Source of the DNA: Patescibacteria group bacterium
GTDB lineage: Bacteria; Patescibacteriota; Doudnabacteria; UBA920
Length of the DNA: 64,000 nt
Assembly: GCA_013387205.1 (NCBI GenBank)
Contig: WARV01000010.1
Span: 765-64,764 of the forward strand
Direction: 5' to 3'
A model generated the notes under the pieces. That model saw nothing but the letters and a program-made list of their open reading frames with translations, was not told the DNA's origin and ran no database searches. Below are positions 5,066 to 51,562 of this stretch, one piece after another (position 1 is the first letter of the stretch; every line of letters starts with the position of its first letter). The position numbers and the translations under genes were made by a program.

Positions 5066-5134
5066 AATGGAATTCTTAAATTTATTACTTTAATATTATA
5101 CCATCCAACCTAAGTTTCTACGAACTAACACCTC

Positions 5135-5255
5135 TACCATACTTCTACTAAATACTAAAAGGTACTAAATATACTAAATCACATCAAATATACTTAATTG
5201 ATATCACTGCTAGTATATAGCTTTAGTATATTTAGTATTATTTCGTATTTAGTAG
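5135..5255. repeat. family A intergenic palindromic element (termini ctactaaatactaa / ttagtatttagtag)
   Basis: About 120 bp AT-rich element with perfect 14 bp terminal inverted repeats and internal complementary arms; fills the tkt/upstream-gene intergenic gap. Copies also at 18374, 18789, 19758, 32183 and 63707. Confidence 0.7.
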
Positions 5256-5260
5256 AGCTT

Positions 5261-6931
5261 TTAGTATCCGTTAATCCCAAACATGGATTTGGGCAATTCG
5301 AATTTGGAGATAATCCCCTGGTTTTGCTGGTTTCTTTTTAAAAAGACAATATTATAGCCATCCACGAACACCGGCGCCCATAACGGGTCATGAACCCGGC
5401 TGATTAGAAAGCTCTGCGCCCAAGGGGTAAAATCGCGGTGGGAAAAAATTATGACATTAAAATTTTCTTGTCTTTCCAGTTCCTGCCAGGCCTGCGCGTT
5501 ATCCTGGGCCGGGATATAGATTTTCTGCAAAAAATCCACGGAATAAGCTTCCGGGCGGTTATCAACGAAAACTTTTTCTTTGGGGAATAAATGGAAGATT
5601 AAATAACCGCCAATATCGTAGTCGTTAAAAATAGGGCCTTGAATATTATTTTGTTTGATAAATTCAGCCGAAGCATTCACGTAAGGCATTAAGCCAATTC
5701 CCATAGCCGAAGTCTTCTCGGAAAATTTCAGATAGTCGCGGTAGCCGCTGCCTAAAATAATAAGCAGGCAGATTGCAATAAAATACGCGTGACGAATATC
5801 AAGGGGTATCCTTGATCTGATCAAGGATGCCCCTTGATACAACGCATTGATGTTGTAGGCTAGAATAGGGATAATGAATAACCCGAAAAACGGAAAATTA
5901 CGGATGCCGAACACTGCCATCACCGAAACAATAAAAAAAATGGCAAACAGCGGCCAGGAAAATTTTTTCCTTTGGAAAAATATCACCAAAATAAAACTTA
6001 TAACCCCTATTGCCAGCACTGCTTTGAACAAAGAAAAATTCAACCCGGCCGTGTGGTTAAGCCTTTCCAAAAACCGGACGGACTGGTTTTCAACGACCAA
6101 GTAACCGTAGTTGTTAAAAATCTGCAAAGGATAGAGCGCGCCTTTAATGAAGTTAGGATTAACTAGCGCGGCTAAACCAGAGACTATACCAGTCAGCAAT
6201 AAATTCTTATCAAAAATTTCGTAAAAATCGCGGCCGCGATTTTTACGAAATCGGTTGTCTACCAGAGACCTTGTGGCACTGCTTACAAAAAACACAAAAA
6301 TCAGCAGCAAGCCCATAAAAAACCCGATGTGTAAGTTTACCCAAATAAGCATTAATACTGGCAATAAATACAACCATCGTTTTTTAGTTTTATCCGCGTT
6401 TATATCCGCGGCTGCAGTATCAGATCCGCGTGCAATCTGCGGATTATAATACACCCACAGCACAAAGAAAAATATCCCGGTAAAAAGATAGGTAAACATT
6501 TCCGGGCGCACTTCCGCGCGCGTGGCAAACAATGGCATAACCAAAACACTTGCAGCAATAGCTAAAAGCCAGCCGCCCATCTTTTTTGCCAGGAAAAAAT
6601 ACACGGCAAAAGTACTTATGCCGAGCAGGATGTAAAATGCTGACAGGCCGGAAAATCCCAAAATTTTCCATACCAGGAAAAACACCACCCCGCTCCCCCA
6701 GTGGTGGTTGATAAACGAAAAGCCAGGCTCAGTGTAGGAATAAAAATTTGTCTTAAAGATATTTTGAGAAAAACCGGAAAGTATAATTTCCCCATTCTTG
6801 ATATGCCTGCCCAAATCCGCGGTAGTCAAATCTATCTTCTGGGCAAAATAAAGCCCGCACCAAGACAATAGGATGATGACGCCTAAGATTTTAAGGATAT
6901 TTGATATTATTTTGGTTTTACTATTAGCCAT
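5261..6931 (-). CDS. polytopic membrane protein, glycosyltransferase family 39 / PMT_2 (ArnT-like) candidate
   Basis: 556 aa with many predicted TM helices N-terminally and a soluble C-terminal region. Carries an in-frame 42 bp nested palindrome at 5798..5839. Confidence 0.4.
   Translation of the reverse strand: MANSKTKIISNILKILGVIILLSWCGLYFAQKIDLTTADLGRHIKNGEIILSGFSQNIFKTNFYSYTEPGFSFINHHWGSGVVFFLVWKILGFSGLSAFYILLGISTFAVYFFLAKKMGGWLLAIAASVLVMPLFATRAEVRPEMFTYLFTGIFFFVLWVYYNPQIARGSDTAAADINADKTKKRWLYLLPVLMLIWVNLHIGFFMGLLLIFVFFVSSATRSLVDNRFRKNRGRDFYEIFDKNLLLTGIVSGLAALVNPNFIKGALYPLQIFNNYGYLVVENQSVRFLERLNHTAGLNFSLFKAVLAIGVISFILVIFFQRKKFSWPLFAIFFIVSVMAVFGIRNFPFFGLFIIPILAYNINALYQGASLIRSRIPLDIRHAYFIAICLLIILGSGYRDYLKFSEKTSAMGIGLMPYVNASAEFIKQNNIQGPIFNDYDIGGYLIFHLFPKEKVFVDNRPEAYSVDFLQKIYIPAQDNAQAWQELERQENFNVIIFSHRDFTPWAQSFLISRVHDPLWAPVFVDGYNIVFLKRNQQNQGIISKFELPKSMFGINGY
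5798..5839. repeat. 42 bp nested palindrome inserted in frame in the membrane protein gene
   Basis: Sequence atcaaggggtatccttgatc t gatcaaggatgccccttgata; encodes QGASLIRSRIPLDI. Confidence 0.65.
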
Positions 6932-6940
6932 GCCTGCAAA

Positions 6941-7072
6941 TTTCTAATTGACCTAATTAACCTAATTATTCTAAATAAATCCCAAAACCTAATGCCTAAT
7001 TTAGAAATTGGGAATTGGTGCTTGTTTAGGTTAATTAGAAATTAGAATAATTAGAATAATTTTAAATCCGCC
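6941..7072. repeat. family B intergenic low-complexity hairpin element (ctaatta / taggtta / attagaa words; terminus aattgacctaatta)
   Basis: Built from permuted short words arranged as imperfect inverted halves. Related copies at 43774, 44392, 45900, 48691, 51018, 52668 and 62843. Confidence 0.6.
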
Positions 7073-7129
7073 ATGTCTTCATTGAACATAGTTTATTTTA
7101 CCAAAATATTTTAGTGATGACTAACTTGC

Positions 7130-10578: not shown

Positions 10579-13050
10579 TCAAATTTCTGACGGCCTGTTA
10601 TCCAAGTAAAATCTTTTTACCAAAACTGCCAAAGCCAGCAAAGATAAAATCGCTATAACCAGATATTTTATTCCAACGATTTTTTTGTTGGTTGGATTAT
10701 TTTTTCCATCACTGGCTAAAGCTTTGGTCGGCTCAATTGATGGTATTGCCAAATCATCCAGCTTGTTGTTTAAATCTACAACCTGTTGCTTTAAATTTTG
10801 AATTTCCTGCAGCATCTGTTCGCTGTTTTTTAAAGCCAGCGCGTAAGCTTTGTTTAACTCCTTGTCGCTTACGGTCTTTTTTACTGCAGATGCTTCTTTT
10901 TGCGAAGCACTGCCGGTTGCGGCAGAAAGAACCATCTCGTTAGGTTTTCCTGGCGTAGGTTTTTCTGTCCACAAATACTCGTCCCCTGCCGTCTGCGCGT
11001 AAGCCATACCCATTTCCGCTTTGCCATAAGTTACTTTGTCAATCTCCCTTCCCAAAAAGTCGGTTAAAGAAACGCTCTGGCCGGAGTTCCTTAACTTGGC
11101 CGGTAATTCATCTTCGTAAACAGCATAAAACTCCCCGGGCCTTAACACGCTCTGAGTATCCAAAATTTTACTGCTGTTTCCTAAATGCAGCACCAACCCT
11201 GCCAAAGGATACTCCTTCTCTCCGACATTTTTTATTTCCACAAATTCTTCATCATTTTTTTCAGGATACGGTAAAATTTCAGTAATGATAATTTTTGGCA
11301 GTTCAATGTCAGCTGCATTCTTTTGCCCGGGAGTCGGTATGCCATATTGCCATTTGCCCGATGAGTCTTTGCTGTAACTTTGCCCTTCCGGCGCTTTTTC
11401 AAAACCAACCTGTTCAACTAACTGCCTGGCTGGATTAAACAGCCTGACCGTATCTTTAGTATTATCCAAAGAAAATTTATCTTCCGGAATATTTAAAACA
11501 AAATAGCTTTCCGCCAAAATTATGGCTTTGTCATCTAAAGTCCAGGCAGATGAACCAATGGCACCGTCGCCATCGTCCAAAATAAAGCCTTTCAGGCTAA
11601 CATTGTCCTTGCTGCTGTTAAAAATTTCTACCCATTCTTTGCCGTCGTCAGCGCCTACGGGATTGGCCATTATCTCATTAATAAAAATTCCGGGGTTAGA
11701 AAAAATGCTTTCTGCCGGCAAAAAATTTTTCTGTCCAAGAGTCGGACTTGCCCACGCCCATTTGCCGGAAATTTTTTGCAAAGATTTTCCTTCCGGCGCA
11801 GCGTCGCTGTAGCTGGCTTTGTCAGCCAATGTTTTGTCTGTAAAATACAAGTTTGCCTCGTCCCCGCCCGTGTTGTTAAACGCAAAATAACCTTTGGGGA
11901 TAACAAAGACGGCAAACGCGCCAGGATTGATGATTGTAGGCGGCAATTGGTAAGCGTTGGATTTTACTCCGCTGTCGCTTTTATCGCCAAGGTACCAACC
12001 TCCGACGTCAACCGCTTCAGCCCCGATATTTTCCAGCTCCACCGCTTCCTTGCCGCTGTCATCGCCGGGAGGATTGGCGTAAATTTCCGAAAGTTTAATG
12101 AAACCGGGTTTGCTTTGGCTGGTCTGGACTGCCGCGCTGCTTCCGGAATTATTCTGGTTGTTTTCCTGCTGGTCTAAGGCCGGCGTAGTGGTGGAATTAT
12201 TTTGGTTATCAGTCAGCGTATCGGTGGTTGAAGTTGTTGTGGTGGCCTGGGGCGGGGTAAAATTTTCCGGAAATGTTATGGAAATATTGCGCGGGGAAGA
12301 ATTGGCAATTATGAAATTTTGCGATGGCGATAATAAATCCTGCCTAACTAGCGCTTGCCCGGCTCCGGGATTTTCCGTAGAAACCACGGTAAAGCCGTTT
12401 AACGCGCTCCCCCATGCCACGCTATCAATAATTTCTCCGCTGTCGCTTGCGCCAAGGCGGATGGCAACTCCGTTATTATCGGCAATACTCGCCGAAGTGG
12501 CCGAATCCGGCGCAATTGGAATAGCCGAATAAGAAGAGTTCGCCCACAAATAAAAACCTCGAGCCGGAATTATAGTATCGTCGGTCCAGGATTTTATCAA
12601 AGAATCCAGGCTGCCGGCAGAGGCAGTCCTTTTTACCAGCCTATAGCCTTTTAAATTAAAACTTGTATCACTTTGGTTATATAGCTCAATGAAATCGTCA
12701 GTCGTGTGTCCTGTCCCGCCGGTAATTTGGATTTGGGATATCGCTACAGAAGCAGCTGTCACCACTCCCGGCAGCAAGAAAAATATTGAAAAAAATAAAA
12801 CTGGAAGTGGTCTCAAAACTTGGCTGTAAGGCGATATTTTAGAATTTCGAGACAGTCGGGCAAAACAAATTTTGATGCTTAGCCTCCGGCTAAGCAGAGA
12901 AATTTTTATGGCCGAATGGAGCTTTAATGGCAATCTGGCTCTGCCAGTTGCCAGCTTAACCCCGAAATTATGAAATTGCAGCCAAAATGAAGTTTTGAAA
13001 CCGCTTCCTAAAAACTTTTGTTGTCCCTTGGCGCTTTTAGTACTCTCCAT
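10579..13050 (-). CDS. surface protein with four lamin-tail-domain (LTD) repeats, a low-complexity T/S/N/Q linker, a coiled coil and a C-terminal TM anchor
   Basis: LTD repeats of the form NP-GxDxGKE-VEL-N-G...DxxGW-L recur four times. The real start is probably an alternative codon near 12830, because the signal-like segment LRPLPVLFFSIFFLLPGVVTAAS lies internally. Confidence 0.7.
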   Translation of the reverse strand: MESTKSAKGQQKFLGSGFKTSFWLQFHNFGVKLATGRARLPLKLHSAIKISLLSRRLSIKICFARLSRNSKISPYSQVLRPLPVLFFSIFFLLPGVVTAASVAISQIQITGGTGHTTDDFIELYNQSDTSFNLKGYRLVKRTASAGSLDSLIKSWTDDTIIPARGFYLWANSSYSAIPIAPDSATSASIADNNGVAIRLGASDSGEIIDSVAWGSALNGFTVVSTENPGAGQALVRQDLLSPSQNFIIANSSPRNISITFPENFTPPQATTTTSTTDTLTDNQNNSTTTPALDQQENNQNNSGSSAAVQTSQSKPGFIKLSEIYANPPGDDSGKEAVELENIGAEAVDVGGWYLGDKSDSGVKSNAYQLPPTIINPGAFAVFVIPKGYFAFNNTGGDEANLYFTDKTLADKASYSDAAPEGKSLQKISGKWAWASPTLGQKNFLPAESIFSNPGIFINEIMANPVGADDGKEWVEIFNSSKDNVSLKGFILDDGDGAIGSSAWTLDDKAIILAESYFVLNIPEDKFSLDNTKDTVRLFNPARQLVEQVGFEKAPEGQSYSKDSSGKWQYGIPTPGQKNAADIELPKIIITEILPYPEKNDEEFVEIKNVGEKEYPLAGLVLHLGNSSKILDTQSVLRPGEFYAVYEDELPAKLRNSGQSVSLTDFLGREIDKVTYGKAEMGMAYAQTAGDEYLWTEKPTPGKPNEMVLSAATGSASQKEASAVKKTVSDKELNKAYALALKNSEQMLQEIQNLKQQVVDLNNKLDDLAIPSIEPTKALASDGKNNPTNKKIVGIKYLVIAILSLLALAVLVKRFYLDNRPSEI

Positions 13051-13080
13051 ATATTTTTTTATTTTTAATGATTATTTCTA

Positions 13081-13116
13081 TTCCCGGAAAACGAGCGATC
13101 GCTCGTTTTCCGGGAA
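13081..13116. repeat. perfect 36 bp palindrome ttcccggaaaacgagcgatcgctcgttttccgggaa (CGATCG core)
   Basis: Read directly; lies 10 bp 3' of the PaaX-like gene stop. Confidence 0.8.
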
Positions 13117-13702: not shown

Positions 13703-13738
13703 TTCCCGGATTTCGAGCGATCGCTCGTTTTCCGGGAA
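13703..13738. promoter_or_regulatory. 36 bp near-palindrome ttcccggatttcgagcgatcgctcgttttccgggaa, 22 bp upstream of the paralog-1 start codon (candidate operator)
   Basis: Same arms and core as 13081..13116 with an aaaa->attt change in one arm. Confidence 0.6.
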
Positions 13739-13795
13739 TTGGTTTTTATTTTGATAATTTTAAAAGCACTATCAAAATATGGTAGTGCTTTACTT

Positions 13796-14499: not shown

Positions 14500-14620
14500 G
14501 GATTTTCTCCGAAAATTCACCCTGAGCTTGCCTGCCACTCCGAAGCTTTAGCGGAGGGGGGTCGAAGGGTAAATAAATTTAAATATTTATATTAAGTAAA
14601 CAAATTATATCGAAAACCGG

Positions 14621-18355: not shown

Positions 18356-18373
18356 AATATTTCTCCGAAATTT

Positions 18374-18456
18374 CTACTAAATACTAATTCTTACTAAAAG
18401 TACTAAATTTTACTTAAATGGCTTTCGTATCTTTAGTACATTTTCGTATTTAGTAG
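18374..18456. repeat. family A palindromic element in the groES-groEL intercistronic gap
   Basis: Termini ctactaaatactaa ... tatttagtagag. Joined to a conserved uucggagaaauAUG RBS segment. Confidence 0.7.
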
Positions 18457-18466
18457 AGATTATTAT

Positions 18467-18772
18467 TTATTCAACTATTGCTAACACATCAGATTCATCC
18501 TTTTCTTTTCCGACGTAAAGAATTTTGTATTCGTTCTTCTTGCCGTCTTCATCCATTTCAACTTCATCGCCGGCATACTTGCCAAACACTACAGTGTCGC
18601 CGACCTTAAGCCCTAAAGAGGCAATTTCGCTGCCGGTCCCCAGTTCCATAATTTTTCCCTGGGCTTTTTTTTCTTTATCTGCAGTGTCCGGCAAAACAAT
18701 CCCGCTCTTGGTTACTTCCTCGCTTGAGAGCTGTTTTACCAGGATCCGGTTTCCTAAAGGTTTTACTTTCAT
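18467..18772 (-). CDS. groS: co-chaperonin GroES
   Basis: 101 aa; canonical GroES. Confidence 0.95.
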   Translation of the reverse strand: MKVKPLGNRILVKQLSSEEVTKSGIVLPDTADKEKKAQGKIMELGTGSEIASLGLKVGDTVVFGKYAGDEVEMDEDGKKNEYKILYVGKEKDESDVLAIVE

Positions 18773-18788
18773 AATTTCTCCGAAATCT

Positions 18789-18899
18789 CTACTAAATACT
18801 AAAAGGTACTAAATATACTAAAATATCATCAAAAAGGCTTAATTGATACCGCTATTGATTTTTGATTTAGTATCTTTAGTATTATTTCGTATTTAGTAG
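18789..18899. repeat. family A palindromic element in the groES 5' UTR
   Basis: Same termini as the other A copies. Confidence 0.7.
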
Positions 18900-18935
18900 A
18901 AGCATTAATTTTCCTAATTTATTTTATAGCAACAC

Positions 18936-19008: not shown

Positions 19009-19747
19009 TATGAATGACAGTTATCAAGACGGCCAAGCTGCCCAAAAATATTTAAAATTCCTGGAGTCAAAAAACGGGAAAATACAGCAAAGCGTACTAA
19101 TTGACGCCCTTTTAAATGCGCTTCCCCAAAACCGGCAGCAAAAAATTTTAGATGCATGCTGCGGCTCTGGCTGGTTGACTTCCCGGCTTTTACAGGATTT
19201 TCCCGAAACTTCAGGCTTTGATTCTTCCAAAGAACTTATTGCTTTTGCCCAAAAAAAATATCCGAACATAAACTTTTCCATTGCCGATGCCGCAAATAAT
19301 CTTCCCTACGAAAAAGATTTTTTTGATGTAGTTATTTTAAACATGGCCGCGCCAGATTTGGAAAACCTGCACCAATCTTTCCAAAACCTTTCCGCCATAC
19401 TAAAAAACAATGGACGTTTTACAATGACCATCCCAAATCCTTATTACACATATCCGGTAGCGGTATGGAAGCGCAGCTTTGCGGATTTTATCCAATTTAA
19501 AAAACCTTCATTAAAAATTCAACTTCCGTATTTCCAGGCGCAGGCAATTGAAAGGGAGTTTGGCAAGGGCAATAAAATTTCTTCCCATTTCTATCCCCTG
19601 TCTTCGTATTTGAATGCGGCAAAAGATGCCGGTTTGAAACTGAAAGAAATTAAAGAAATTAAAAGCGTAATTGATAGCCAAAAATTCGACCTGCAATACC
19701 AGCTCTACAGGTATCCGTTGATATTATTGGTAGAATTTACGAAATAA
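19009..19747 (+). CDS. class I SAM-dependent methyltransferase
   Basis: Motif I ILDACCGSGWLT. The start is probably MNDSYQ; the track ORF starts earlier at 18956. Confidence 0.7.
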
Positions 19748-19757
19748 CCTCTTCTCT

Positions 19758-19868
19758 CTACTAAATACTAAAAAGTACTAAACATACTAAAGCTATATAC
19801 CAGTATTGATATCAGTTAAGTCTATTTGATGATATTTAGTACATTTAGTATTAATTAGTATTTAGTAG
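19758..19868. repeat. family A palindromic element between convergent genes
   Basis: Termini ctactaaatactaa / ttagtatttagtag. Confidence 0.7.
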
Positions 19869-19879
19869 AAAGATTAGTA

Positions 19880-20791
19880 TTATCCAAAAAACATCCTCAA
19901 CAAATCCTGCTGCTTACTTAACGGATGGAATGATAGTTCGTCATCTTTAACCACAATAAACTTTTCCTGGCGGATTTTGGGAAGCTGCCAGCTTTTTAAT
20001 ATTACCTCAAAACTCGCGCCAAACTTGTTATCAAAAATTCTTTCCAAAAATTTCTGGTATCGCGATGCTTTATCCTGGATGCAGAAAAACGTAACATTTG
20101 GAAAAAAAATATTAATCCAGCTTAGGTTTTTCATTTGAAAATCGTAAATAGCGCTGGCAAAAACCAAAGGGCGGAGCTTGGCATATTCCCAAGCCGTGTA
20201 TAAATTCCTAAAGCCATCCATTTGTTTTTGCCCCACTATATAATGGTTCAGGCAGAACCGGTTGGAAATTTTATTCCCATGCCGCCTTAAACCTAAAAAT
20301 TGGAAATAAGCCGTTATCAAAGTCCTTGCCAACCATAAAAATTTGTGAGATACGATAATGAACAAGTCGATATCTGAATTTGGTTTTTGAAATCCCTGTG
20401 CCTGGCTGCCGGTTAAACCTACTCCCCTTATGAACGGAATGAGCCTAAGGCCCGAAATGTATTTCCTGATTAATTTTTCCCTGATAATCCCGTAGCTATA
20501 ATTTTGCAGCCTTTTTTCTACAATTTCCCGCTTTCCCGGCAAATAATAAAATCCTTTATCATTTAAAACTTGGCTGCCGCACTCAGTATCCAAGCATTTT
20601 AAAACATCGCTGATTGATACTTGGCTGGAATTTTGTTGTAGATTAATATCATTTAATTCCCATTGGCTGTCGAGTGAAGTTTTAAGGTCTGTTGTTTCGG
20701 AAATTAAAAAACGATGGAGTTCCAAAAGGGTCAAAGGAGTCTCCATTAAATCAAAAAAACGCAAAGTTGAAAGGATACGATTTTTTAACAT
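19880..20791 (-). CDS. nucleotidyltransferase-domain protein (Pol beta superfamily)
   Basis: G-S-x9-13-D-x-D-like motif GSQAQGFQKPNSDIDLFIIV. Confidence 0.45.
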   Translation of the reverse strand: MLKNRILSTLRFFDLMETPLTLLELHRFLISETTDLKTSLDSQWELNDINLQQNSSQVSISDVLKCLDTECGSQVLNDKGFYYLPGKREIVEKRLQNYSYGIIREKLIRKYISGLRLIPFIRGVGLTGSQAQGFQKPNSDIDLFIIVSHKFLWLARTLITAYFQFLGLRRHGNKISNRFCLNHYIVGQKQMDGFRNLYTAWEYAKLRPLVFASAIYDFQMKNLSWINIFFPNVTFFCIQDKASRYQKFLERIFDNKFGASFEVILKSWQLPKIRQEKFIVVKDDELSFHPLSKQQDLLRMFFG

Positions 20792-20881: not shown

Positions 20882-21229
20882 TTATAAGCCTAACTTGTCC
20901 AGTGTTATTTCTTCCCACTCGTCAAAATCAACTTCCTTGAAGACACGAAGTTTATGCGAAAATTGGTCTTGAGAAAACTTATATTCTGTCCTGGCAGTAT
21001 CGCCCATCCGGTGCGAATAATGCTCTTTCTTTTCCAAAACAACAGGATGGTTTTCGCGTACTAGTTTATACCTGTCGCCGCTTGGATGGGTGAATATTAA
21101 AATATCCTGGGCCCCGCGCTTCTGCGGGCCGTCCTCAGTTTCGACCATAATATCTTCCGTTCTTAAGCTAACATCGGAAAAATTATTCTTGGCCGCCTCC
21201 ACTAATTGTTCCCATTTTTCATTTGTCAT
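20882..21229 (-). CDS. hypothetical protein
   Basis: 115 aa ORF; no recognised family. Confidence 0.35.
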   Translation of the reverse strand: MTNEKWEQLVEAAKNNFSDVSLRTEDIMVETEDGPQKRGAQDILIFTHPSGDRYKLVRENHPVVLEKKEHYSHRMGDTARTEYKFSQDQFSHKLRVFKEVDFDEWEEITLDKLGL

Positions 21230-21230
21230 A

Positions 21231-21305
21231 GGTTACAGATTACGAATAATTTACAGATGTACGGATTACGGATCTGTATATCTGTACAAAATCCGTAATC
21301 TTTAA
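21231..21305. repeat. family C palindromic element (ggttacagattacg ... cgtaatctttaacc)
   Basis: Inverted halves around gattacggatctgtatatctgtac. Second copy at 54119..54210. Confidence 0.6.
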
Positions 21306-21310
21306 CCTGA

Positions 21311-21604
21311 TTACTGCGTAAGGCTGCCGCCGTAAATTCCGCCTAAGGTGGAAAGGGATTTCATTACCATTGGCAAAAGCACGGCCATAGCCAAAATCGG
21401 CAGTACAATTAAAACGAGAGTAATGTACAATTGCCATTGCATGTATTTTTTCGTCTTGCGTGAGTTTTCTAAAATTTCTGCCAACATTTCCCTGTCCTCC
21501 GACTTGTCCGACGTAGCTTTAGCGAAGTCGGAAGCCTTGGCGAAGGAGGATTCTTGGCCCATTACTTGCCCTTGCTGCACATTTTCCATTTGATTTGTTT
21601 CCAT
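21311..21604 (-). CDS. small membrane protein (97 aa) with an in-frame GC-rich repeat insert
   Basis: C-terminal TM helix. RBS AAGGAGAGGGGA lies inside a hairpin (cctctcct-atgat-aaggagagg). The insert at 21488..21545 shares an 18 bp core with the fpg insert. Confidence 0.4.
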   Translation of the reverse strand: METNQMENVQQGQVMGQESSFAKASDFAKATSDKSEDREMLAEILENSRKTKKYMQWQLYITLVLIVLPILAMAVLLPMVMKSLSTLGGIYGGSLTQ

Positions 21605-21781
21605 AAGTTTTATCCCCTCTCCTTATCATAGGAGAGGGAGGGTGAGGTTATTATTCTTATCTTTATTTTACCATACCAGCCAATTGACAAAAAGCCGCTT
21701 TAATTATACCCTAAATTGACGCCAAAAGCGCCAAATCAAAACCATAGCTGACGGCGGAAAGCCTAAGCAACTGGAGGATAT

Positions 21782-22324
21782 ATGCAAGAAACGGTCATTG
21801 AAACGTTCAAGGAATGGCTTCTTGAACAAACCGAGAAAACCGTAGTTGTGCGCACGTGGATTTATGAAGAGGCAGGGAAATCTGCAGCGTTCGAATCCTA
21901 CCTGTTCTTCAGACAAAAGGATGGTATTCTGTTCGGGGTGCTGTCGTCTCAATCCTTAAAACCAGTGACCCCGCATCATCAACAGTTAGGTCCAATCCCC
22001 TACGATCATCCAGGATTGGATCAAGAACTCCGCAAATGGATCCGCATGCGATGCGACGACTTCTTGGACTGCGAACAGGTTGTAACTGTCCGCCAAGCAA
22101 ACAACAGCATCACCAGCGCTGGTACCTTCTCGCCAGAGATTCCGTACGTCTTCGGAATGCTATTTGCAGAAATAAAGGGGTTCGTCGACAATCCCAAGAC
22201 ATCTCAGAGCGAACGCTTTTTGATGCAAACAGTTGTCAACCGTTTGTCTGGTTTCCTGAACGAACAGTTCAGTAAGTTCAAGCAAGCTAAACAGCAACTA
22301 CTCGAGGTCGTTTCCTCTATGTAG
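21782..22324 (+). CDS. hypothetical protein in a GC-rich islet (about 50% GC)
   Basis: 180 aa; RBS GGAGGA; followed by a strong terminator. No recognised family. Confidence 0.45.
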   Translation: MQETVIETFKEWLLEQTEKTVVVRTWIYEEAGKSAAFESYLFFRQKDGILFGVLSSQSLKPVTPHHQQLGPIPYDHPGLDQELRKWIRMRCDDFLDCEQVVTVRQANNSITSAGTFSPEIPYVFGMLFAEIKGFVDNPKTSQSERFLMQTVVNRLSGFLNEQFSKFKQAKQQLLEVVSSM

Positions 22325-22326
22325 CA

Positions 22327-22365
22327 AAAGCCCGCGGCGCGCATTTTGCGCCGCGGGCTTCTTTC
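22327..22365 (+). terminator. rho-independent terminator
   Basis: Hairpin aaagcccgcggcgc-gcattttgc-gccgcgggctt followed by ctttc. Confidence 0.6.
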
Positions 22366-22414
22366 ACCCTTCGGGTGATCACCCGAAGGGTGACTATATT
22401 CTAAATTCTAGATT

Positions 22415-23407
22415 CTACTTTTGGCATTTCGGGCAAAACGAACCGGTGCGTCCGCCAATCTTCATCGACTGGATTACTGTGCCGCAAACTTTACATTTCT
22501 CCCCTGCCCGGCCGTAAACGAAATGAAATTTTCCCATTTGCCCCCAAGAGCCATCTGTCCTTATAAAATCCCCAACCGACGAGCCCTTAGCTTTAATCGC
22601 CTGCTTTAAAACTTTTTGAATGTTTTGATAAATACCCCTTAATTCTTGATTCTTAATACTTGATACTTTCCTGTCCGGCCTGACTTTGGCATGAAATAAA
22701 ATCTCATCGCTATAAATATTGCCAATCCCCGCCACTACTTTTGGATCCATCAAAACCTGTTTGATTTTCCCCTTCGGACGTTTTTTCACGGCCGTGAAAA
22801 AACGTCCCCATATGAATTCTTTGTTTAACGGCTCGGGGCCGTATTCCGAAAGTTCTCTAACTTGATCAATCTCATTATCGCGCACCAATTTTAAATACCC
22901 AAACTTACGTACGTCGTTAAAATACAAAGTTGATCCATCTGTAAATTTAAATATCACGTGCGTGTGCTTGCTTGGCAACTGGACCAATGGAGCATTAGAT
23001 GAATTAATCAGGCGATATTTTCCACCAGTTTTTTGCCGCAGTTTTTTATCCTCAAAAATAAACTGCCCGGTCATTTTTAAATGTGCCAAAATAGAAAGCG
23101 ATCCGCTTGTCCGACGTAGCCTTGCATTGCCCGCCGAAGCTTTATGCGAAGGCTGGGGCGAAGTTGGAGATAAATCAAAAATCAAAAGTTTGGCCCTGCG
23201 CTTAACCGACAAAATCTTTTTTCCAATCAGCAAATCAGAAAATTTTTTTACCTGGCCATTTTTGACTTTCCTGACATTACTAACGACATCCGGTCCAATT
23301 TGCACCATCTTTGGCGCATTAACAAAAACCGACTTAATAGCCTTGTTTTTTAGCTTTTTATTTAGTTCATTTACAATGGTTTGGACTTCTGGGAGTTCAG
23401 GCATCAA
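22415..23407 (-). CDS. mutM: formamidopyrimidine-DNA glycosylase (Fpg/MutM) with an inserted repeat
   Basis: N-terminal MPELPEVQT; C-terminal zinc finger CKVCG...GRTGSFCPKCQ. An in-frame 26 aa GC-rich insert (SPTSPQPSHKASAGNARLRRTSGSLS) lies at 23086..23165. Confidence 0.85.
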   Translation of the reverse strand: MMPELPEVQTIVNELNKKLKNKAIKSVFVNAPKMVQIGPDVVSNVRKVKNGQVKKFSDLLIGKKILSVKRRAKLLIFDLSPTSPQPSHKASAGNARLRRTSGSLSILAHLKMTGQFIFEDKKLRQKTGGKYRLINSSNAPLVQLPSKHTHVIFKFTDGSTLYFNDVRKFGYLKLVRDNEIDQVRELSEYGPEPLNKEFIWGRFFTAVKKRPKGKIKQVLMDPKVVAGIGNIYSDEILFHAKVRPDRKVSSIKNQELRGIYQNIQKVLKQAIKAKGSSVGDFIRTDGSWGQMGKFHFVYGRAGEKCKVCGTVIQSMKIGGRTGSFCPKCQK

Positions 23408-23882
23408 TTTAGATATTAGATAACTTAATTATACCAATCGCCGCACAATTGACAAAATAACCTATAAATGAGAAAATGGTTAGTCGCTGATGTTTGCATG
23501 CCTTAAATGATATCCCGAAAGGATGAATAGTTTTTTGTTCTAAGTTTAAGGCGGTTTGATGTTACGACGGCGACAAAAGACCTGAATAAGGCTTGGCGAG
23601 AAAAAGTCAAAAGAGGAAAGCAATTCTCCAAGTTTTGGCGTGTGAGGTTATGTATTTGAGGCAGGCGGCACTGCCGGAAAATGAGACCAAAACCACTATC
23701 TTCCTCTACGCGAGGATAAAAAGCACGACATGGGAACCGCAAGAACCATGTAGCCGCAATAGTTTTTATTGCGGGTGCTGCCAAAACCAACCTGAAGATC
23801 GCGTTTAAAAATTCTTTAAATTAAAAAATTTTTGAAATACCCAGCGGCACATCTTCAGGACAACGAGAACCTAATCCCGCTC

Positions 23883-23912
23883 GCCACCACCCTTTAAGGT
23901 GGTGGCTTTTTC
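23883..23912 (+). terminator. strong rho-independent terminator with no upstream plus-strand gene
   Basis: Hairpin gccaccacc-ctttaa-ggtggtggc followed by ttttt. Confidence 0.55.
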
Positions 23913-24053
23913 ATTTTATTGACAATATCATGTTATTGATATATATTAATCTATCAATTGCGGTTTGCGGAGTAAGCGTTTCTAGTGCTTATTCCGCTGC
24001 CCGCAAGAGCAGCCTGCCTTTGGCAGACTTCGTCTACCTAGACGTTAAACGAG

Positions 24054-24440
24054 GTGGAAAAGATGAGTGAGGTCGAGAATCCTCTCACCAAATTACATCA
24101 GTTAACCCGCACAACCGAGCAGCAACTTTGCCAAAATGCGGGAATGATTGCTAAAGCATTAGCAGCTTTAGGGCCCTGCAATCTACCTATGGACTACCAA
24201 GTCCGGAAGGTTGCTGGCAAACCCCGACTCCAACGACGGAATAAGAGATGTCACGAAGGAGTCCCTTACAAACACGCTTTTACGGTATATCCGGAAATCC
24301 GGGTGCCAATCTACGACGCTCTCTGCATAGCTGAAGATGTAGAGGCTGGTTTGATTGACCAAGTTGTCGTCGAACTACAGACAATGCAGAAAGCTGAAAC
24401 CGTGCTCGCAAAAGCAGTGGCTAGACTGAAGTTGATGTAG
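24054..24440 (+). CDS. hypothetical protein in a GC-rich islet (about 52% GC)
   Basis: 128 aa; RBS GAGGTGGAAAAG before ATG. Confidence 0.45.
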   Translation: MEKMSEVENPLTKLHQLTRTTEQQLCQNAGMIAKALAALGPCNLPMDYQVRKVAGKPRLQRRNKRCHEGVPYKHAFTVYPEIRVPIYDALCIAEDVEAGLIDQVVVELQTMQKAETVLAKAVARLKLM

Positions 24441-24927
24441 GATTTTTCAGACTTGAAAGTTCAGTTTTTCAGTATTCCATCTTCCGTATTCCGTTTTCCG
24501 TCATGCAATAATGATTGCGTTCTTGGGTAGACGCAAGCAGGAGGAGGAATATACCCAATTATTATGCAAAAAATAGAACATCGTTCTATGGATAATGCAA
24601 AAAGATCATGAAAGCCCGCTAGAGGAACCAGATGTGTTTCTCGCGGGCTTTTCATATTGAAAATATTCCCATTCTCCGTCATAATAAGTATAATGGTTTT
24701 TGGTTAAATTACAGGGTGTTATCCAAACGGCTAAATCGATTATTTACTGCGTTTTAGCCGTTCTCCTTCCCTGTAAAGGGAAGGTGGCTTGCGAAAACAA
24801 GCCGGAAGGGTATGACAATAATTTGATACCACCTCCCTCCACTTTTACGTGGAGTACTCCTCCTTAGAAAGGAGGAGAGAAGGTTACACCAGCACCCAGT
24901 TCGCAATAACGATAACGTTAAAATGAT

Positions 24928-32164: not shown

Positions 32165-32182
32165 GATAGTTCTTACATTCTC

Positions 32183-32294
32183 TACTAAATACTAATATAT
32201 ACGAAAGATACTAAAGCTTTATACTAATAGTGATATTAATTAAGTATACTTAGATGATATTTTAGTATATTTAGTACTAATTAGTATTTAGTAG
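32183..32294. repeat. family A palindromic element
   Basis: Termini ctactaaatactaa / ttagtatttagtag. Confidence 0.7.
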
Positions 32295-32299
32295 AAGTA

Positions 32300-32701
32300 T
32301 TAAAGGTTAGTGTTAATTTTTTCCAACTTCCATTCAATCTTGTCGCTGTTCTTTAACTGGTATTGTCCGGCTCCGACCGGCGCCAGCTGGCTGTTTATAT
32401 AAAAGGCCCAAAAGTTTTTGCCGTTTTCCGACATATTACCGTCAATGCCTATTACCATCTCCCCCAGGCCCTGATACGTCTTAGTCTGCACTTGGTGGGT
32501 ACTCTTTAACAAATCCAACGCAGTCGTTCCTTGTTTTACTGCATAATCAGGCTGGTTTAAATTTGAAGCCTGGACAGTCTGGTAAACCTTAATATCCTGG
32601 CTTTGCTGGCTGGTTTGGTTGCCGGGCTGCTTACTGCATCCAGCCGCTGCCAAAAAAATCAGTGATGATAATAAAAAAACCTTAAAGAAAGTTTTTCGCA
32701 T
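32300..32701 (-). CDS. DUF4430-domain lipoprotein (transcobalamin-like fold), tentative
   Basis: Signal peptide plus lipobox LAAAGC; C-terminal GKNFWAFYINSQLAPVGAGQYQLKNSDKIEWKL is typical of DUF4430. Confidence 0.5.
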   Translation of the reverse strand: MRKTFFKVFLLSSLIFLAAAGCSKQPGNQTSQQSQDIKVYQTVQASNLNQPDYAVKQGTTALDLLKSTHQVQTKTYQGLGEMVIGIDGNMSENGKNFWAFYINSQLAPVGAGQYQLKNSDKIEWKLEKINTNL

Positions 32702-42832: not shown

Positions 42833-43296
42833 TTTAGTTTTTCTTTCAGTATCTTGGCTAGCATTGCTCCATCGGCCAGCAGGCCGACCTTGGCTTTAAG
42901 CTTGCCCATTGCCGGCCCAAAATCTTTGGCCGTAAAATTGTTTTCCGCAATTTCCTTGTCGATAATTTCAGAAAGCTGCGCTTCGCTCATCTGCTGCGGC
43001 AAATACTGTTCCAAAATACCAGCCTCGGAAAGCTCCTTGGCTTCCAGTTCCGGCCTGCCGCCTTCTTTATAAGAAGCCGCCGCCTCTTTGCGGCGCTTAA
43101 CTTCTGACCTGACCAAAACAACAATATCAGATTCTTCCAAATCCTTTCGCCCTTTGGGTGATCCGCCTTTGGCGGACATCTTGGCAATTTTCTCGTTCGT
43201 TATCCGGGTTTTCAATGCGCGCAAAGTGTCCACCTTAAGCTGATCTTTAGCCTTAAGGGCGGCTGTTAAATCCTGTTCAATTTGGGACAATGAAAC
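42829..43296 (-). CDS. GatB/YqeY domain protein
   Basis: SQIEQDLTAALKAKDQLKVDTLRALKTRI...LADGAMLAKILKEKL is typical of YqeY. Confidence 0.7.
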   Translation of the reverse strand, partial: VSLSQIEQDLTAALKAKDQLKVDTLRALKTRITNEKIAKMSAKGGSPKGRKDLEESDIVVLVRSEVKRRKEAAASYKEGGRPELEAKELSEAGILEQYLPQQMSEAQLSEIIDKEIAENNFTAKDFGPAMGKLKAKVGLLADGAMLAKILKEKLK

Positions 43297-43615: not shown

Positions 43616-43773
43616 TAATATCACCTCTTTCTTTAGTATAGACCACTGATACGCAGATAATCGCAGATTACACAGATGCAGTTATCTGCGTCATCAGTGC
43701 AAATCTGTGTATCTGCGGTCTTATTTCTTACCTAACTATAATATATTTCCCGATTTTGGTCAAACGGAACGAG

Positions 43774-43917
43774 AATTAACCTAATTATTCTAATTTCTAA
43801 TTAACCTAAACAAATCCCAATTTCTAACTACCCAATTTCCTAATTTCTGATATTTTAGTCATTGGTTATTAGTCATTGTTTAGACTAATTAGGTCAATTA
43901 GGAATTAGGTTAATTTA
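43774..43917. repeat. family B intergenic element
   Basis: Words ctaatta / taggtta; terminus motif cctaattgacctaattag. Confidence 0.6.
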
Positions 43918-44326: not shown

Positions 44327-44391
44327 GGAAGTTATGTTAATATTAATAGGTTCGTAATTATTTAATAATTATTTTTATTACAAAAATTGCA

Positions 44392-44542
44392 AATTCCTAA
44401 TTATTCTAATTGTTCTAATTGACCCCGGGTCAAGCCCGGGGCAGGCTCTAAATAATGTCTAATGACCCAATGTCTAAAATTTGGATATTAGGATTTAGGA
44501 TTTGTTTAGAAATTAGGTCAATTAGGTTAATTAGAAATTATC
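44392..44542. repeat. family B intergenic element with a GC hairpin core (ccccgggtcaagcccgggg)
   Basis: Read directly. Confidence 0.6.
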
Positions 44543-47265: not shown

Positions 47266-48693
47266 ATGACCAATCCAGACTTAAACAATAACCAGCCAAT
47301 TCGCCCGCCAAAAATTTCAGTAAGCAACACCGCCCAAGTCAGTTTGCTAAAAGGCCAGAAACAAAAACACGGGACCAGGAAAGCGCTTAAGCTTACTTTA
47401 TTGGCCATTTTGGCTGTTATTTTAATTTTGGGCGGAGTTGTTGCAAACCGGGCCGCTAACCTGTCGCAAAAAATCTTTGTCGGCCAAAAGATGACTTTTT
47501 TCCAAAAAATCAAGGATGTGTTTAAAGGAAGCGGCACAAAGCTGGTCGGAGAAGATTTGGGACAGATTAACGTCCTGCTCCTCGGGATCGGCGGCGAAGG
47601 CCACGACGGCCCATACCTTTCCGACACGATGATTTTGGCGCAAATCCGTCCTGATATCGGCCAGGTATCTTTAATTTCTATCCCCCGCGATTACCTGGTC
47701 CAGCTGCCGAACAATTTAGGCAGCAGGAAAATTAACGCGGCGTTTGCCGAAGGCTACTACAAAAATAAGGACTGGAACGAAGCCGGCACTTGGGCCAGGG
47801 AAGCCGTAGAAAAAGTCTCCGGCCAAAAAATCCCTTATTTCGCAGTGGTTGATTTTGCCGGTTTCGAAGATGCCGTCAATAAAGTTGGCGGCGTGGATGT
47901 TAACGTGGAAAGGGATTTTACCGACTACTCCTATCCCGATTCAAAAGACGGTTACTTGCCGCCAGTGACTTTTAAAAAAGGCTTGGAGCACATGGGTGGC
48001 ACGCGCGCTTTGCAGTTTGCCCGCTCCAGGCATGCGGCTGGCCCCGAAGGATCGGATTTTGCCCGCTCCCAGCGCCAGCAAAAAATCATACAGGCTTTCA
48101 AGGACAAAGCAATGAGCATGCAGACTTTGTCTGATCCTTCCAAAGTAAACGGACTGCTTGGAGTTTTTGCCGACCATTTCCACACCAATGTCAGTCCCGG
48201 GGAAATTTTCAGGATTTATAGCCTGGTTAAGGAACACGACATCCAAAATTTCATTTCCATCAGCCTGGATCCCACCACCAAACTCATCTGTCCGCAGATA
48301 CTGCCGGAGAACGGGGCTTACGTACTTACCCCGTGCCCGGGAAAAACAGACCAGGATATTAAAAACTATTTTGCCAATTCTTTTTCCATAGGAAAACTTT
48401 ACCAGGAAAAAAGCATAATCTGGATGTCTACAAGCAATCAGGACAAGGCAGCTTACCAAACAGCTGACCAGAAACTTAAAGACGCCGGGCTGACCGTCTG
48501 GGAACTGCCTTACAAAGGGCCAGTCCTATCGCAAAACGTTTTTTACCAAGCCAACATAAAGCCGGCAACTGCCGAGTTCATAAAGAACACGCTTGGTGCC
48601 ACCGAAGTCAACCTGCCTCCCCCAGGGATGAAAATTGACAAGAGCAAAGTAGATATTATTGTGATACTTGGAGGAGAAGAGCAGAAGAATTAA
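47266..48693 (+). CDS. LCP family protein (LytR-CpsA-Psr)
   Basis: N-terminal TM; LCP core NVLLLGIGGEG...SDTMILAQIRPD...ISIPRD. Confidence 0.85.
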   Translation: MTNPDLNNNQPIRPPKISVSNTAQVSLLKGQKQKHGTRKALKLTLLAILAVILILGGVVANRAANLSQKIFVGQKMTFFQKIKDVFKGSGTKLVGEDLGQINVLLLGIGGEGHDGPYLSDTMILAQIRPDIGQVSLISIPRDYLVQLPNNLGSRKINAAFAEGYYKNKDWNEAGTWAREAVEKVSGQKIPYFAVVDFAGFEDAVNKVGGVDVNVERDFTDYSYPDSKDGYLPPVTFKKGLEHMGGTRALQFARSRHAAGPEGSDFARSQRQQKIIQAFKDKAMSMQTLSDPSKVNGLLGVFADHFHTNVSPGEIFRIYSLVKEHDIQNFISISLDPTTKLICPQILPENGAYVLTPCPGKTDQDIKNYFANSFSIGKLYQEKSIIWMSTSNQDKAAYQTADQKLKDAGLTVWELPYKGPVLSQNVFYQANIKPATAEFIKNTLGATEVNLPPPGMKIDKSKVDIIVILGGEEQKN

Positions 48694-48905
48694 CCTAATT
48701 ATTCTAATTATTATTAACTCATCCTGTCCTTCTCTTTAGCAAAGAGAAGGAACCAGCTTAGCAAGGCTATAATCTAGCTTAGTATGTACTCCCTCTTTAT
48801 CATAAGAGGGAGACAGAGGGAGTTAGTATTAGGAATTAGGAATTGGGATTTGTTTAGTCCGCCAGCTGGCGGAAATTAGGTTAATTAGGTTAATTAGGTC
48901 AATTG
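48691..48905. repeat. composite family B element containing CTCCCTCTTT-loop-AAAGAGGGAG hairpins
   Basis: ctaatta word arms plus internal hairpins ccttctcttt-agca-aagagaagg and ctccctcttt-atcat-aagagggag-acagagggag. Related composites at 51018 and 52668 (the latter inverted). Confidence 0.6.
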
Positions 48906-48948
48906 TTATCAAAGAATTTTAAAGTAAATCATTAACATTATTCATCCC

Positions 48949-50484: not shown

Positions 50485-51027
50485 ATGAAACTCATTGTCG
50501 GTTTAGGAAATCCGGGAACAAAATACGAACACACCCGCCACAACGCGGGCTTTTTGGCGATTGACGAATATTTGAAAGACGTCCAAAGCATTAATTGCCA
50601 AAGCAGCTTTAAGTCGCAGGTCTGCGAATTGCATTTTGGCAGCAATAAAATTTTCTTTGTAAAGCCCCAAACCTTCATGAATTTATCCGGTGAGGCAATT
50701 GCCGAAATTGCCAATTTTTATAAAGTTGATATTGCCAAAGACCTGTTAGTCATCCACGATGAAGTTGACTTGCCGTTCGGTACCATAAGAGCCACCGATT
50801 CCTCTTCTTCCGCCGGACATAACGGCGTACAAAATATTATCGACAAATTAGGAACGCAAAATTTTCACAGAATAAGAATTGGCGTGGAATCAAGGACAGA
50901 GGAAGACATGACGCCGACAGACGCTTTTGTCTTGCAAAATTTCACAGACGAAGAAACAAAAAAACTCCAGGAAGAAATCTTTCCCAAAGTTAAGGTTGAG
51001 ATAGAGCGGTTTATAAAATTGACCTAA
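50485..51027 (+). CDS. pth: peptidyl-tRNA hydrolase
   Basis: MKLIVGLGNPGTKYEHTRHNAGF. Confidence 0.9.
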   Translation: MKLIVGLGNPGTKYEHTRHNAGFLAIDEYLKDVQSINCQSSFKSQVCELHFGSNKIFFVKPQTFMNLSGEAIAEIANFYKVDIAKDLLVIHDEVDLPFGTIRATDSSSSAGHNGVQNIIDKLGTQNFHRIRIGVESRTEEDMTPTDAFVLQNFTDEETKKLQEEIFPKVKVEIERFIKLT

Positions 51028-51200
51028 TTATTATTAACTCATCCTGTCCTGCTCTTTGCTAAAGAGAAGGGACATATTAAGAAAGATTTGTAAATGATTA
51101 ACAGATAAACTATCTTAGCATGTTCTCCCTCTTTGTCTAAAGAGGGAGACAGAGGGAGTTGATATTAGAAATTGGGATTTGTTTAGAATAATTTTAAACC
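51018..51200. repeat. composite family B element; its aaattgacctaatta terminus overlaps the pth stop codon
   Basis: Same internal hairpins as 48691..48905. Confidence 0.6.
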
Positions 51201-51562
51201 GCCCTTACAAAAATAAAAAAAACTTTCCATCAACGAATGAAAGGAAAGATTTCAATGTTTACACCCAGTACCCTACTTGCAAGTGAAAGGCTGGAGACAA
51301 TCGCCTTCAAACCTTTGCTTGATGCTAAGAGCAAGTAATAGGAGGGATGATACCTGCTTTCGCAACTTGCATGTAGGATACTAGATATAAGCTTATAACA
51401 AAGTACCATTTAATACTTTACCTATAAGTATACTCCTTTTTTGGCATTTTGTCAACCCCGTTAGAAAGCGCTTTAATTATAAGGCTTTTAGTCAATATTT
51501 GATTAATATCTAATACCTAGGCTTTCTAACGGGGCCAAGGAGTGCTTAAATAACTTAAACAT

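Follow-up and report, generated by a model that had tools for sequence, protein, structure and literature searches.

The small dispersed repeats (SDRs) of cyanobacteria reportedly measure 21-27 nt and can form hairpins, and their mobility is said to have been deduced from filled and empty orthologous sites. They reportedly also nest and insert in short contexts such as HIP1 and tandem heptamers; we know of no transposase that moves them. Yeast and fungal mitochondria are said to carry GC clusters, double-hairpin elements and 'byp' elements. Among the Rickettsia palindromic elements (RPEs), RPE-1 is ~100-150 nt long and is not known outside Rickettsia. RPEs are summarized, in a review that cites the original work, as palindromic in-frame inserts that add a peptide to many unrelated functional proteins (Ogata et al., cited in PMC3733652). 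According to the account in a citing paper, SDRs have been reported only in Nostocaceae. Miniature inverted-repeat transposable elements (MITEs), as outlined in the same review, span 70-300 nt and have terminal inverted repeats and target-site duplications (PMC3733652). Repetitive extragenic palindromic sequences (REPs) and their hairpin-forming doublets (REPINs) are imperfect palindromes of 20-40 nt with an unpaired end tetranucleotide (Bertels & Rainey 2011, PMC3116915; Di Nocera et al. 2013, PMC3733652). Intragenic REPs favor replication and repair genes, a preference that is unexplained (PMC3116915; PMC3733652), and CGTC-type REPs have no known transposase (PMC3733652). Here we describe a 30-nt hairpin unit with the same palindrome-plus-tetranucleotide architecture, likewise without a known transposase. 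It occurs in a 64,000-nt stretch, hereafter the window, of contig WARV01000010.1 from a Doudnabacteria genome (GCA_013387205.1, positions 765-64,764).

Two loci in the window carry the unit, one within the DNA glycosylase gene fpg and one within an open reading frame (ORF) for a small membrane-type protein. Each locus consists of two nested copies of a tiny non-coding hairpin repeat that probably behaves as selfish mobile DNA, and our analysis suggests that the repeat is best read as a non-autonomous, REP/SDR/RPE-like selfish hairpin element. The features of the two loci are listed below; labels of the form L### and P0123 designate sequence stretches or orthologues compared with the window.

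21311-21604, minus strand: small conserved membrane-type protein of Doudnabacteria, 97 aa, no Pfam family
21491-21502, minus strand: right 12 nt of the outer unit of the small ORF, TC GGAGGA CAGG; the inner unit is inserted at GGCT^TCGG
21503-21532, minus strand: inner intact 30-nt unit, TCCGAC TTC GCT AA AGC TAC GTCGGA CAAG, matched by the covariance model and containing the shared 18-mer
21533-21550, minus strand: left 18 nt of the outer (older) unit, TCCTCC TTC GCC AA GGC T, which rebuilds a full unit with 21491-21502
22415-23407, minus strand: fpg/mutM, formamidopyrimidine-DNA glycosylase (Pfam Fapy_DNA_glyco, H2TH and zf-FPG)
23106-23123, minus strand: right 18 nt of the outer unit of fpg, AA GGC TAC GTCGGA CAAG, identical with the shared 18-mer and read as RLRRTS
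23124-23156, minus strand: inner 33-nt unit in the apical loop, CCAGCC TTC GC ATAAA GC TTC GGCGGG CAATGC, matched by the covariance model
23157-23168, minus strand: left 12 nt of the outer unit of fpg, TCCAAC TTC GCC, aligning with the single unit in L001, L221, L222, L223 and L224

The original prediction held that one GC-rich DNA word, read in two frames in two unrelated genes, marks a selfish insertion and not protein homology, and every check proposed along with it favors this view. The 18-mer CTTGTCCGACGTAGCYTT occurs at 21503-21520 and 23106-23123 (plus-strand coordinates) and, with up to three mismatches allowed, nowhere else in the window. Shuffled sequence yields 0.08 matches, and none of 100 shuffles contained two. 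The common ungapped stretch of the two loci comprises 22 of 23 bases. Both host ORFs lie on the minus strand, and they read the shared GCTACGTCGGACAAG in different frames, so that the small ORF encodes A-T-S-D-K where fpg encodes (R)-L-R-R-T-S. The two places had been located correctly, but their extents (21488-21545 and 23086-23165) need revision to 21491-21550 (60 nt) and 23106-23168 (63 nt). A 'related downstream segment' noted at the time is real and is accounted for by nesting, with two copies of one 30-nt unit per locus. The unit is indeed GC-rich, at 56-62% GC against ~42% in the surroundings. What the prediction did not include is that the unit is a covarying 30-nt hairpin, that nesting is double at both loci, that the older fpg layer is shared by descent, and that the element occurs in ~15 phyla.

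The 30-nt unit has the consensus TCCGCC-TTC-GCC-AA-GGC-TWC-GGCGGA-CAAG. An outer stem of 6 bp is followed by a 3x3 mismatch (TTC/TWC), an apical stem of 3 bp and a loop of 2 nt, and a CAAG tail is left unpaired. With nine paired positions it is an imperfect palindrome whose size falls inside the 20-40 nt REP range, and on the opposite strand the internal loop is a symmetric GAA/GAA (or GUA/GAA). The search pattern CTTCGC-N1-3-AAR-GCTWCGKCGGRCAAG, derived from the copies in the window and its orthologues, recovered 142 copies with the consensus yCCrC-C-TTC-GCy-AA-rGC-TwC-G-kCGGr-CAAG. The search had not covered the five bases that precede the pattern on its left, yet these pair with the right arm as TCCGC/GCGGA (51 copies), CCCGC/GCGGG (22), TCCGA/TCGGA (10) and CCCGA/TCGGG (4). 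Hairpin pairing reaches 94% over 66 distinct copies, in which three pairs covary (UA34/CG26, CG51/AU13 and UA31/CG28). The covariation score was matched by 0 of 500 shuffles, and the signal was lost when partners were slid by one to three columns. Compensated stems also occur within genes, as TCCTCC/GGAGGA in the small ORF of the window and TCCGTC/GACGGA in L221. Judged from the pairing and covariation of these aligned copies, the hairpin is under selection. It is covariation that carries the structure, because the predicted folding energy is unremarkable; thermodynamic stability (z = -0.9 to -1.75, not significant) was dropped as evidence for the hairpin. A covariance model made from the recovered copies and run on the window matched the inner unit of the small ORF (56.4 bits, E=9e-16) and that of fpg (30.3 bits, E=1.6e-7). 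Rfam 15, run over the window, returned two tRNAs at gathering score and nothing credible over the element.

The fpg product has strong matches to solved MutM structures, and alignments with MutM entries of the PDB skip the insert. At 329 aa it exceeds the modal length of 308 aa among the 120 best homologues by 21 residues, fewer than the 26 first proposed; one-unit orthologues measure 318 aa. In the alignment, the excess is confined to one point, between LLIFDLS and GPLSMLVHLKMTG. The site is empty in L002 (TTTTCC|GGTCCG), and in L001 it is filled by TCCGACTTCGCCAAGGCTACGTCGGACAAG (PTSPRLRRTS), a length of exactly 30 nt. In the window, the L001-type unit holds 33 nt more in its apical loop, TCCAACTTCGCC[CCAGCCTTCGCATAAAGCTTCGGCGGGCAATGC]AAGGCTACGTCGGACAAG, and this inner unit is translated (Q)PSHKASAGNA. 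A 33-nt unit is nested at the matching internal point CTTCGCC^AAGGCT in L197, and L228 contains a comparable composite. No record of the window's Fpg was found on other contigs.

Since the empty 18-residue spacing is kept in ~25 fpg loci of Doudnabacteria and more distant members of the Candidate Phyla Radiation (CPR), the empty site is ancestral. The insert is missing from most orthologues, as had been expected, but some hold the older layer by descent. In a neighbor-joining Fpg tree built with the insert left out, filled and empty states are interleaved, and the tree is shallowly resolved. The simplest history on this shallow tree would be one old insertion, then repeated precise loss or allele exchange, and later nesting. 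An AlphaFold2 model of Fpg (mean predicted local distance difference test, pLDDT, of 82) assigns pLDDT below 50 to residues 83-99, between the strands at 73-78 and 103-108; the insert is thus modeled as a disordered loop between two beta strands of the N-terminal domain.

We also scanned the surroundings of 83 CPR fpg genes, 727 kb in all, with the covariance model. Of its 13 matches, seven fall inside fpg, at four sites in different CPR clades: residue ~33 (IRLRQGFGGQV; L197, the nested 33-nt unit), ~80 (the site of the window), ~250 (L154) and the zinc finger (L155). The other six lie in ~650 kb of CPR loci. This enrichment, equivalent to ~4 independent events in ~10% of the DNA searched, is suggestive only, given few events and loci that were chosen through fpg. 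Elsewhere, the fpg site of the window is occupied by unrelated hairpins (L141, L142 and L150), and in L225 by the element nested in the loop of another hairpin. A C-rich/G-rich hairpin type (e.g. CCCTCTCCC/GGGAGAGGG) occupies this site in L141, L142 and L225, and a similar hairpin, CCCCTCTCC-TTATCAT-AGGAGAGGG, lies at 21609-21645, immediately upstream of the small ORF.

The neighborhood of fpg differs between relatives. The 1.5-kb interval between fpg and relA/spoT (23408-24927) contains no long ORF and no Rfam match. The distance is only ~60-160 nt in L001, L002, L222, L226 and L228, and the interval looks like an insertion in this comparison. On the other side, fpg and the small ORF are separated by a 180-aa ORF (21782-22324, plus strand) that matches no Pfam family and precedes two strong terminator-like hairpins (22325-22400). 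L001 has a 186-aa counterpart of this ORF; it is not present in L002, L154, L221 and L225-L228, where the small ORF directly follows fpg.

The small protein carries its insert in a variable N-terminal tail. The inner unit is translated (S)DFAKATSDK, and the outer unit, when rejoined, reads TCCTCCTTCGCCAAGGCT|TCGGAGGACAGG, again 30 nt with a compensated TCCTCC/GGAGGA stem. Fifteen orthologues measure 57-87 aa; they conserve the hydrophobic C-terminal half and are without the 20 extra N-terminal residues. One unit stands at the position of the window, after CAAGAA, in L154 and L221, and P0123 has one unit at another position. The orthologues thus have zero or one layer and the window two. In the sequences compared, the older layers at both window loci are common to relatives and the second layers are so far found in the window only. 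A 70-nt repeat (21238-21307, GATTACGAATAATTTACAGATG..GGATTACGGATCTGTATATC..), which is internally palindromic, adjoins the 3' end of the small ORF and recurs at 54151-54220 with 86% identity.

Beyond the window, copies are intergenic or lie inside housekeeping genes, where all six reading frames are used. The six-frame peptides are FAKA[ST]A[DG]K, LRQGFGGQ, SPRLRRTS/PSLKLRRAS, LARRSLGE, LSAEALAK and CPPKPWRR. Hosts confirmed by Pfam, with the unit inside the domain, include a pyridine-nucleotide disulfide oxidoreductase, ValRS/IleRS-type and LeuRS synthetases, RlmN, a P-type ATPase, RarA/MgsA, PriA and a GT4 transferase. We favor selfish insertion because orthologues show empty, one-unit and nested states and because the same DNA occurs in unrelated genes, in six frames and between genes. 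Low-GC genomes hold many copies within long ORFs, and none of their genes is broken by the in-element stop codons that some variants have in some frames. Such stop-free genes fit ordinary translation under purifying selection; translational bypass and intron-like removal were rejected, as no low-GC gene with an in-element stop was found.

At fpg sites A and B, comparison of filled and empty states shows a gain of exactly one unit with no target-site duplication. Left flanks are diverse, with GCT preceding 29 of 135 copies, and the weakly preferred GCT^NCG context recurs within the element as its internal site. Copies occur singly or nested in a common orientation. Their landing sites are intergenic and coding DNA, loops of other hairpins and the element's own 3' internal loop (GGCT^WCGG), where insertion gives nested arrays. 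Arrays in L045, L094 and L140 have the insertion point GGCT^WCGG, as in the small ORF of the window. Multi-layer arrays mostly contain as many left halves (18 nt) as right halves (12 nt), which repeated insertion of whole units at this point would produce. Many intergenic copies in other phyla interrupt tandem arrays of 7-8 nt, and those of Bradyrhizobium interrupt a CGTC-type REP, GGATTGCT^TCGCT..CGCAATGACG. In Bradyrhizobium and relatives (L050, L060, L070, L083, L089, L093, L106 and L117) the element breaks the local repeat at GGATTGCT^TCGCTnCGCTCGCAATGACG, and a second hairpin, AGCAATCCAGA..TCTGGATTGCT, adjoins the interrupted Bradyrhizobium repeat. Of 131 copies, 83 have the top strand of the unit on the strand that is locally G-rich (p = 0.003), which would fit a preference for the lagging-strand template, a signal confounded with gene orientation; copies in verified low-GC genes are sense in 17 of 24.

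A strict pattern with 20 fixed and 4 two-fold positions, for which we estimate ~0.2 chance matches in a 596-Gb genome collection, matched at least 120 genome stretches and 17 viral contigs. By record titles, near-identical copies occur in ~15 bacterial phyla. Within the CPR they include Roizman-, Moran-, Komeili-, Kaiser-, Taylor-, Uhr-, Berkel- and Saccharibacteria and WWE3, and among groups related to the Planctomycetes-Verrucomicrobia-Chlamydiae assemblage they include Verrucomicrobiota, Kiritimatiellia and Lentisphaeria. Further copies come from Acidobacteriota, Planctomycetota, Bacteroidota, Elusimicrobia, Bdellovibrionota, Armatimonadetes, Nitrospiraceae, Spirochaetia, Dependentiae, Omnitrophota, Acidimicrobiia and Alpha-, Gamma- and 'Delta'-proteobacteria. 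Most genome matches are metagenome-assembled genomes. Cultured Bradyrhizobium of more than ten species also carry the element, one on a complete chromosome (NZ_CP120691.1). Since complete genomes of Bradyrhizobium isolates contain the element, its cross-phylum distribution is unlikely to stem from contaminated or mis-binned assemblies. Host stretches range from 31% to 71% GC. The same 8-kb stretches hold ~27 further, more diverged copies (~1 per 27 kb), and the density in the window is two loci plus one weak match in 64 kb.

No cyanobacterial record is among the matches listed for the at least 120 genome stretches, the element was not found in 5,426 E. coli genomes, and collections of cultured phages and plasmids gave chance-level partial matches at most. 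Its absence from the E. coli genomes and the chance-level matches in cultured phages and plasmids may be the reason why the element has gone unnoticed. Viral contig L005 (IMG/VR) and the Spirochaetia metagenome-assembled genome L056 share an identical element-bearing sequence, as do viral contigs L008 and L012. Some viral matches may be prophage or mis-assigned host DNA.

We infer the following mode of spread. The 10-codon unit would be open in three sense and two or three antisense frames, and insertion would never shift the frame because the unit is exactly 10 codons long. Units would survive where 10 extra residues are tolerated, for example in the disordered loop of Fpg or the N-terminal tail of the small protein, and the encoded peptides (FAKATSDK, RLRRTS and others) would be passengers. 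The form in which the unit moves is probably a hairpin of single-stranded DNA, which could be handled in trans by a REP/RAYT-like HUH enzyme (RAYT, REP-associated tyrosine transposase) or by replication-fork processes, with single-stranded DNA or hairpins as the preferred targets. A phmmer screen of 1.8 Mb with two Y1 transposase queries found one Y1_Tnp gene, in L141 (11725-12258, Pfam E=7.6e-7). It is RAYT-like, and its flanking hairpins are inverted, GTAG-tagged and of a different sequence. RAYT-like machinery thus exists in the Doudnabacteria lineage, as judged from this gene, which does not itself tie that machinery to the 30-nt element. The hairpins, at 11745-11775 and 12270-12305 (ACGGTAGCGGAGGCCACCGGCCTCC / GGCGGCCGGTGGCCGCCGCTACCGT), and the gene form a REPtron in a Doudnabacteria contig that sits between orthologues of the window ORFs 20882-21229 and 19880-20791.

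Several observations weigh against a mobile selfish hairpin. The phmmer screen returned only that one gene, and all-against-all ORF clustering around 137 copies revealed no recurrent neighbor gene family. Beyond the weak GCT^NCG preference there is no conserved target or flank, and the folding energy is ordinary, as given above. The simple copies at fpg site B all have the minority TCCGAC/GTCGGA stem, which argues for one old insertion with losses or allele exchange and not for repeated recent hits. Movement is deduced from differences between orthologues, and mobility at the present time is a possibility. Furthermore, near-identity across phyla is hard to reconcile with any known transposition system. 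A bolder version of the selfish hairpin, to which we give somewhat less than an even chance, is a pan-bacterial 'nano-transposon': a codon-neutral 30-nt hairpin, essentially one sequence in ~15 phyla, moved by the fork or by an enzyme. Its host range would extend from 31%-GC Dependentiae and CPR to 70%-GC Planctomycetota, Bradyrhizobium and phage-like contigs, and its mover would be a widely shared single-strand hairpin enzyme or the replication fork directly. It would nest in its own loop and in other hairpins and repeatedly decorate housekeeping and DNA-repair proteins.

The absence of a transposase near the 137 copies and of any target duplication would also suit copying without an enzyme, in which the hairpin is captured by template switching or by gap-repair 'filler' synthesis at stalled forks or hairpin-prone sites, and its spread is a by-product of host replication and repair. 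The favored landing places (hairpin loops, short tandem arrays and the unit's own loop) are places of fork slippage, several unrelated hairpins have filled one fpg position, and a universal host process would suit the cross-phylum range. We nevertheless consider this unlikely, as template switching normally needs microhomology at both junctions, none of which is evident at the fpg and small-ORF sites, and as it explains neither why exactly one defined unit, 30 nt long and always with the CAAG tail, is copied each time nor how one sequence entered ~15 phyla. Somewhat less likely still is a functional motif kept by selection, that is, an RNA or DNA site for a conserved factor acting in mRNA stabilization or processing, pausing, or nucleoid or gyrase binding. 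A stem maintained by covariation even in coding regions and near-identity across phyla, as if a conserved partner reads the sequence, are what such a site would show, and so is the orientation bias (83 of 131 on the G-rich strand, 17 of 24 sense), but this bias is confounded with gene orientation. The unit occurs in both orientations, in six frames, in unrelated enzymes and between genes, and its placement relative to genes is not fixed; for each host gene, the majority of orthologues are without it, Rfam has no such family, and the nested multi-layer arrays resemble self-insertion, not regulatory design.

Selection on the peptides would see the inserts as homologous or convergent low-complexity linkers with a role in each protein. 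They do occupy loops and tails and have many small and charged residues, but one DNA gives unrelated peptides (ATSDK and LRRTS in the window, six frames overall), and what is conserved is the nucleotide sequence, in non-coding copies too. The frame analysis in practice refutes this very improbable reading. Chance similarity or an assembly or binning artefact, which the predominance of metagenome-assembled genomes might suggest, has the smallest probability of all, practically nil. It is refuted by the match counts (0.08 expected and 2 found in the window; ~0.2 and at least 120 in genomes), the GC range of the host contigs (31% to 71%), in-frame copies in independently assembled orthologues and the cultured Bradyrhizobium, including chromosome NZ_CP120691.1.

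The window contains further hairpins and arrays. One intergenic segment and two families of AT-rich arrays are listed here.

14519-14570, minus strand: degenerate intergenic relative of the unit just upstream of rpmF (L32), ..CCTCCGCTAAAGCTTCGGAGTGGCAGGCAAG.., flanks ACCCT/AGGGT; weak assignment
6943-7093, 43765-43906, 44367-44540, 48679-48911, 51017-51202, 52666-52900 and 62829-62974: AT-rich arrays
5128-5270, 18357-18471, 18774-18914, 19743-19883, 32167-32309 and 63708-63815: also AT-rich arrays

The segment upstream of rpmF is probably a degenerate relative, weakly assigned through a partial covariance-model match only (14540-14557, E=0.014). Other weak matches of the model (43162-43178, 62296-62315, 12351-12372 and others) were judged to be generic short GC hairpins or chance. 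Hairpins of the form TCCGCC-AGCT/AGTT/TTT-GGCGGA, at 48858-48873, 62932-62947, 1219-1234 and 43162-43176, have the 6-bp stem of the element. This TCCGCC/GGCGGA stem class is ~20x commoner than in shuffles (19 vs 0.94), and two of its hairpins form the centers of AT-rich arrays; they could be relatives of the element or generic terminators. The two intergenic array families have an 8-9-nt period (CCTAATTAA.. / TACTAAATA..) and often consist of inverted halves around a GC hairpin. An inverted pair, ATTCCCGGAAAACGAGCGATCGCTCGTTTTCCGGGAAT, occurs at 13080-13116 and 13703-13739, 586 nt apart, and each arm is palindromic with GCGATCGC, the cyanobacterial HIP1 octamer.

For annotation, the selfish hairpin implies that odd GC-rich low-complexity peptides in metagenome proteins (FAKATADK, LRQGFGGQ, SPRLRRTS) would be DNA parasites read by the ribosome and not motifs, which bears on alignment, domain annotation and structure prediction. 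For protein evolution, the element would be a source of ready-made 10-residue loop insertions. One 30-nt sequence in ~15 phyla challenges the view of REP-like repeats as lineage-specific partners of a local transposase, and the bolder pan-bacterial version, if true, would make the element one of the smallest mobile DNAs known and one of the most widely distributed. As Bradyrhizobium carries the element and can be cultured, the movement of very small repeats becomes testable.

The likeness to REPs extends from architecture to behavior. Both are dispersed without target duplication, for the unit apparently at moderate copy number, some copies are intragenic and encode extra loop residues, and insertions recur in one gene, many of them in replication and repair genes; the recurrence in Fpg (four sites), PriA and RarA echoes this preference of intragenic REPs. 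The tag differs, being CAAG/CAGG (CTTG on the other strand) and not GTAG or CGTC. Within the unit, GTAG is restricted to the mismatch of the W=A variant, read from the other strand, and CGTC to the minority K=T variant. In contrast to REPINs, head-to-head doublets were not seen and units nest co-oriented. No RAYT gene flanked by the unit was found in the 1.8 Mb screened with the two Y1 queries, and many REP families are species-specific whereas the unit is near-identical across ~15 phyla. The element may correspond to the unusually long 'GCGG/CCGC loops' of Bradyrhizobium REPs (Di Nocera et al., PMC3733652); the supplements of that 2013 study do not contain the unit sequence. Neither the unit sequence nor the encoded peptides were found in the literature searched, a search that left most subscription journals outside; by topic, it yielded papers on REPs, REPINs and HIP1 only.

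Like RPEs, the unit inserts in frame in otherwise conserved proteins (Fpg, the small ORF, synthetases, RlmN, ATPase, RarA, PriA and GT4), but at 30 nt and in ~15 phyla it is set apart by length and host range and not by direct sequence comparison. With SDRs it shares nesting, filled and empty sites, and tandem-array contexts (7-8 nt here); it differs from them in sequence, by description, in its 30-nt length and cross-phylum range and in lying frequently inside protein-coding genes. Mitochondrial GC clusters and byps are likewise short GC-rich hairpins that invade intergenic and coding DNA of AT-rich genomes, but all of these are organellar and byps are skipped by the ribosome, whereas the missing in-frame stops argue here for ordinary translation. 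MITEs such as Correia/NEMIS, RUP and ERIC are also non-autonomous and dispersed and are sometimes co-transcribed with genes, but the unit has neither terminal inverted repeats nor target duplication. Duplication-free insertion would fit 'peel and paste' substrates of the IS200/IS605 type, which insert 3' of a fixed tetranucleotide; the left flanks of the unit are not conserved (GCT in 29 of 135, otherwise diverse). Small palindromic repeats in frame inside genes are thus already known, and the unusual feature of this element is its near-identity across ~15 phyla.

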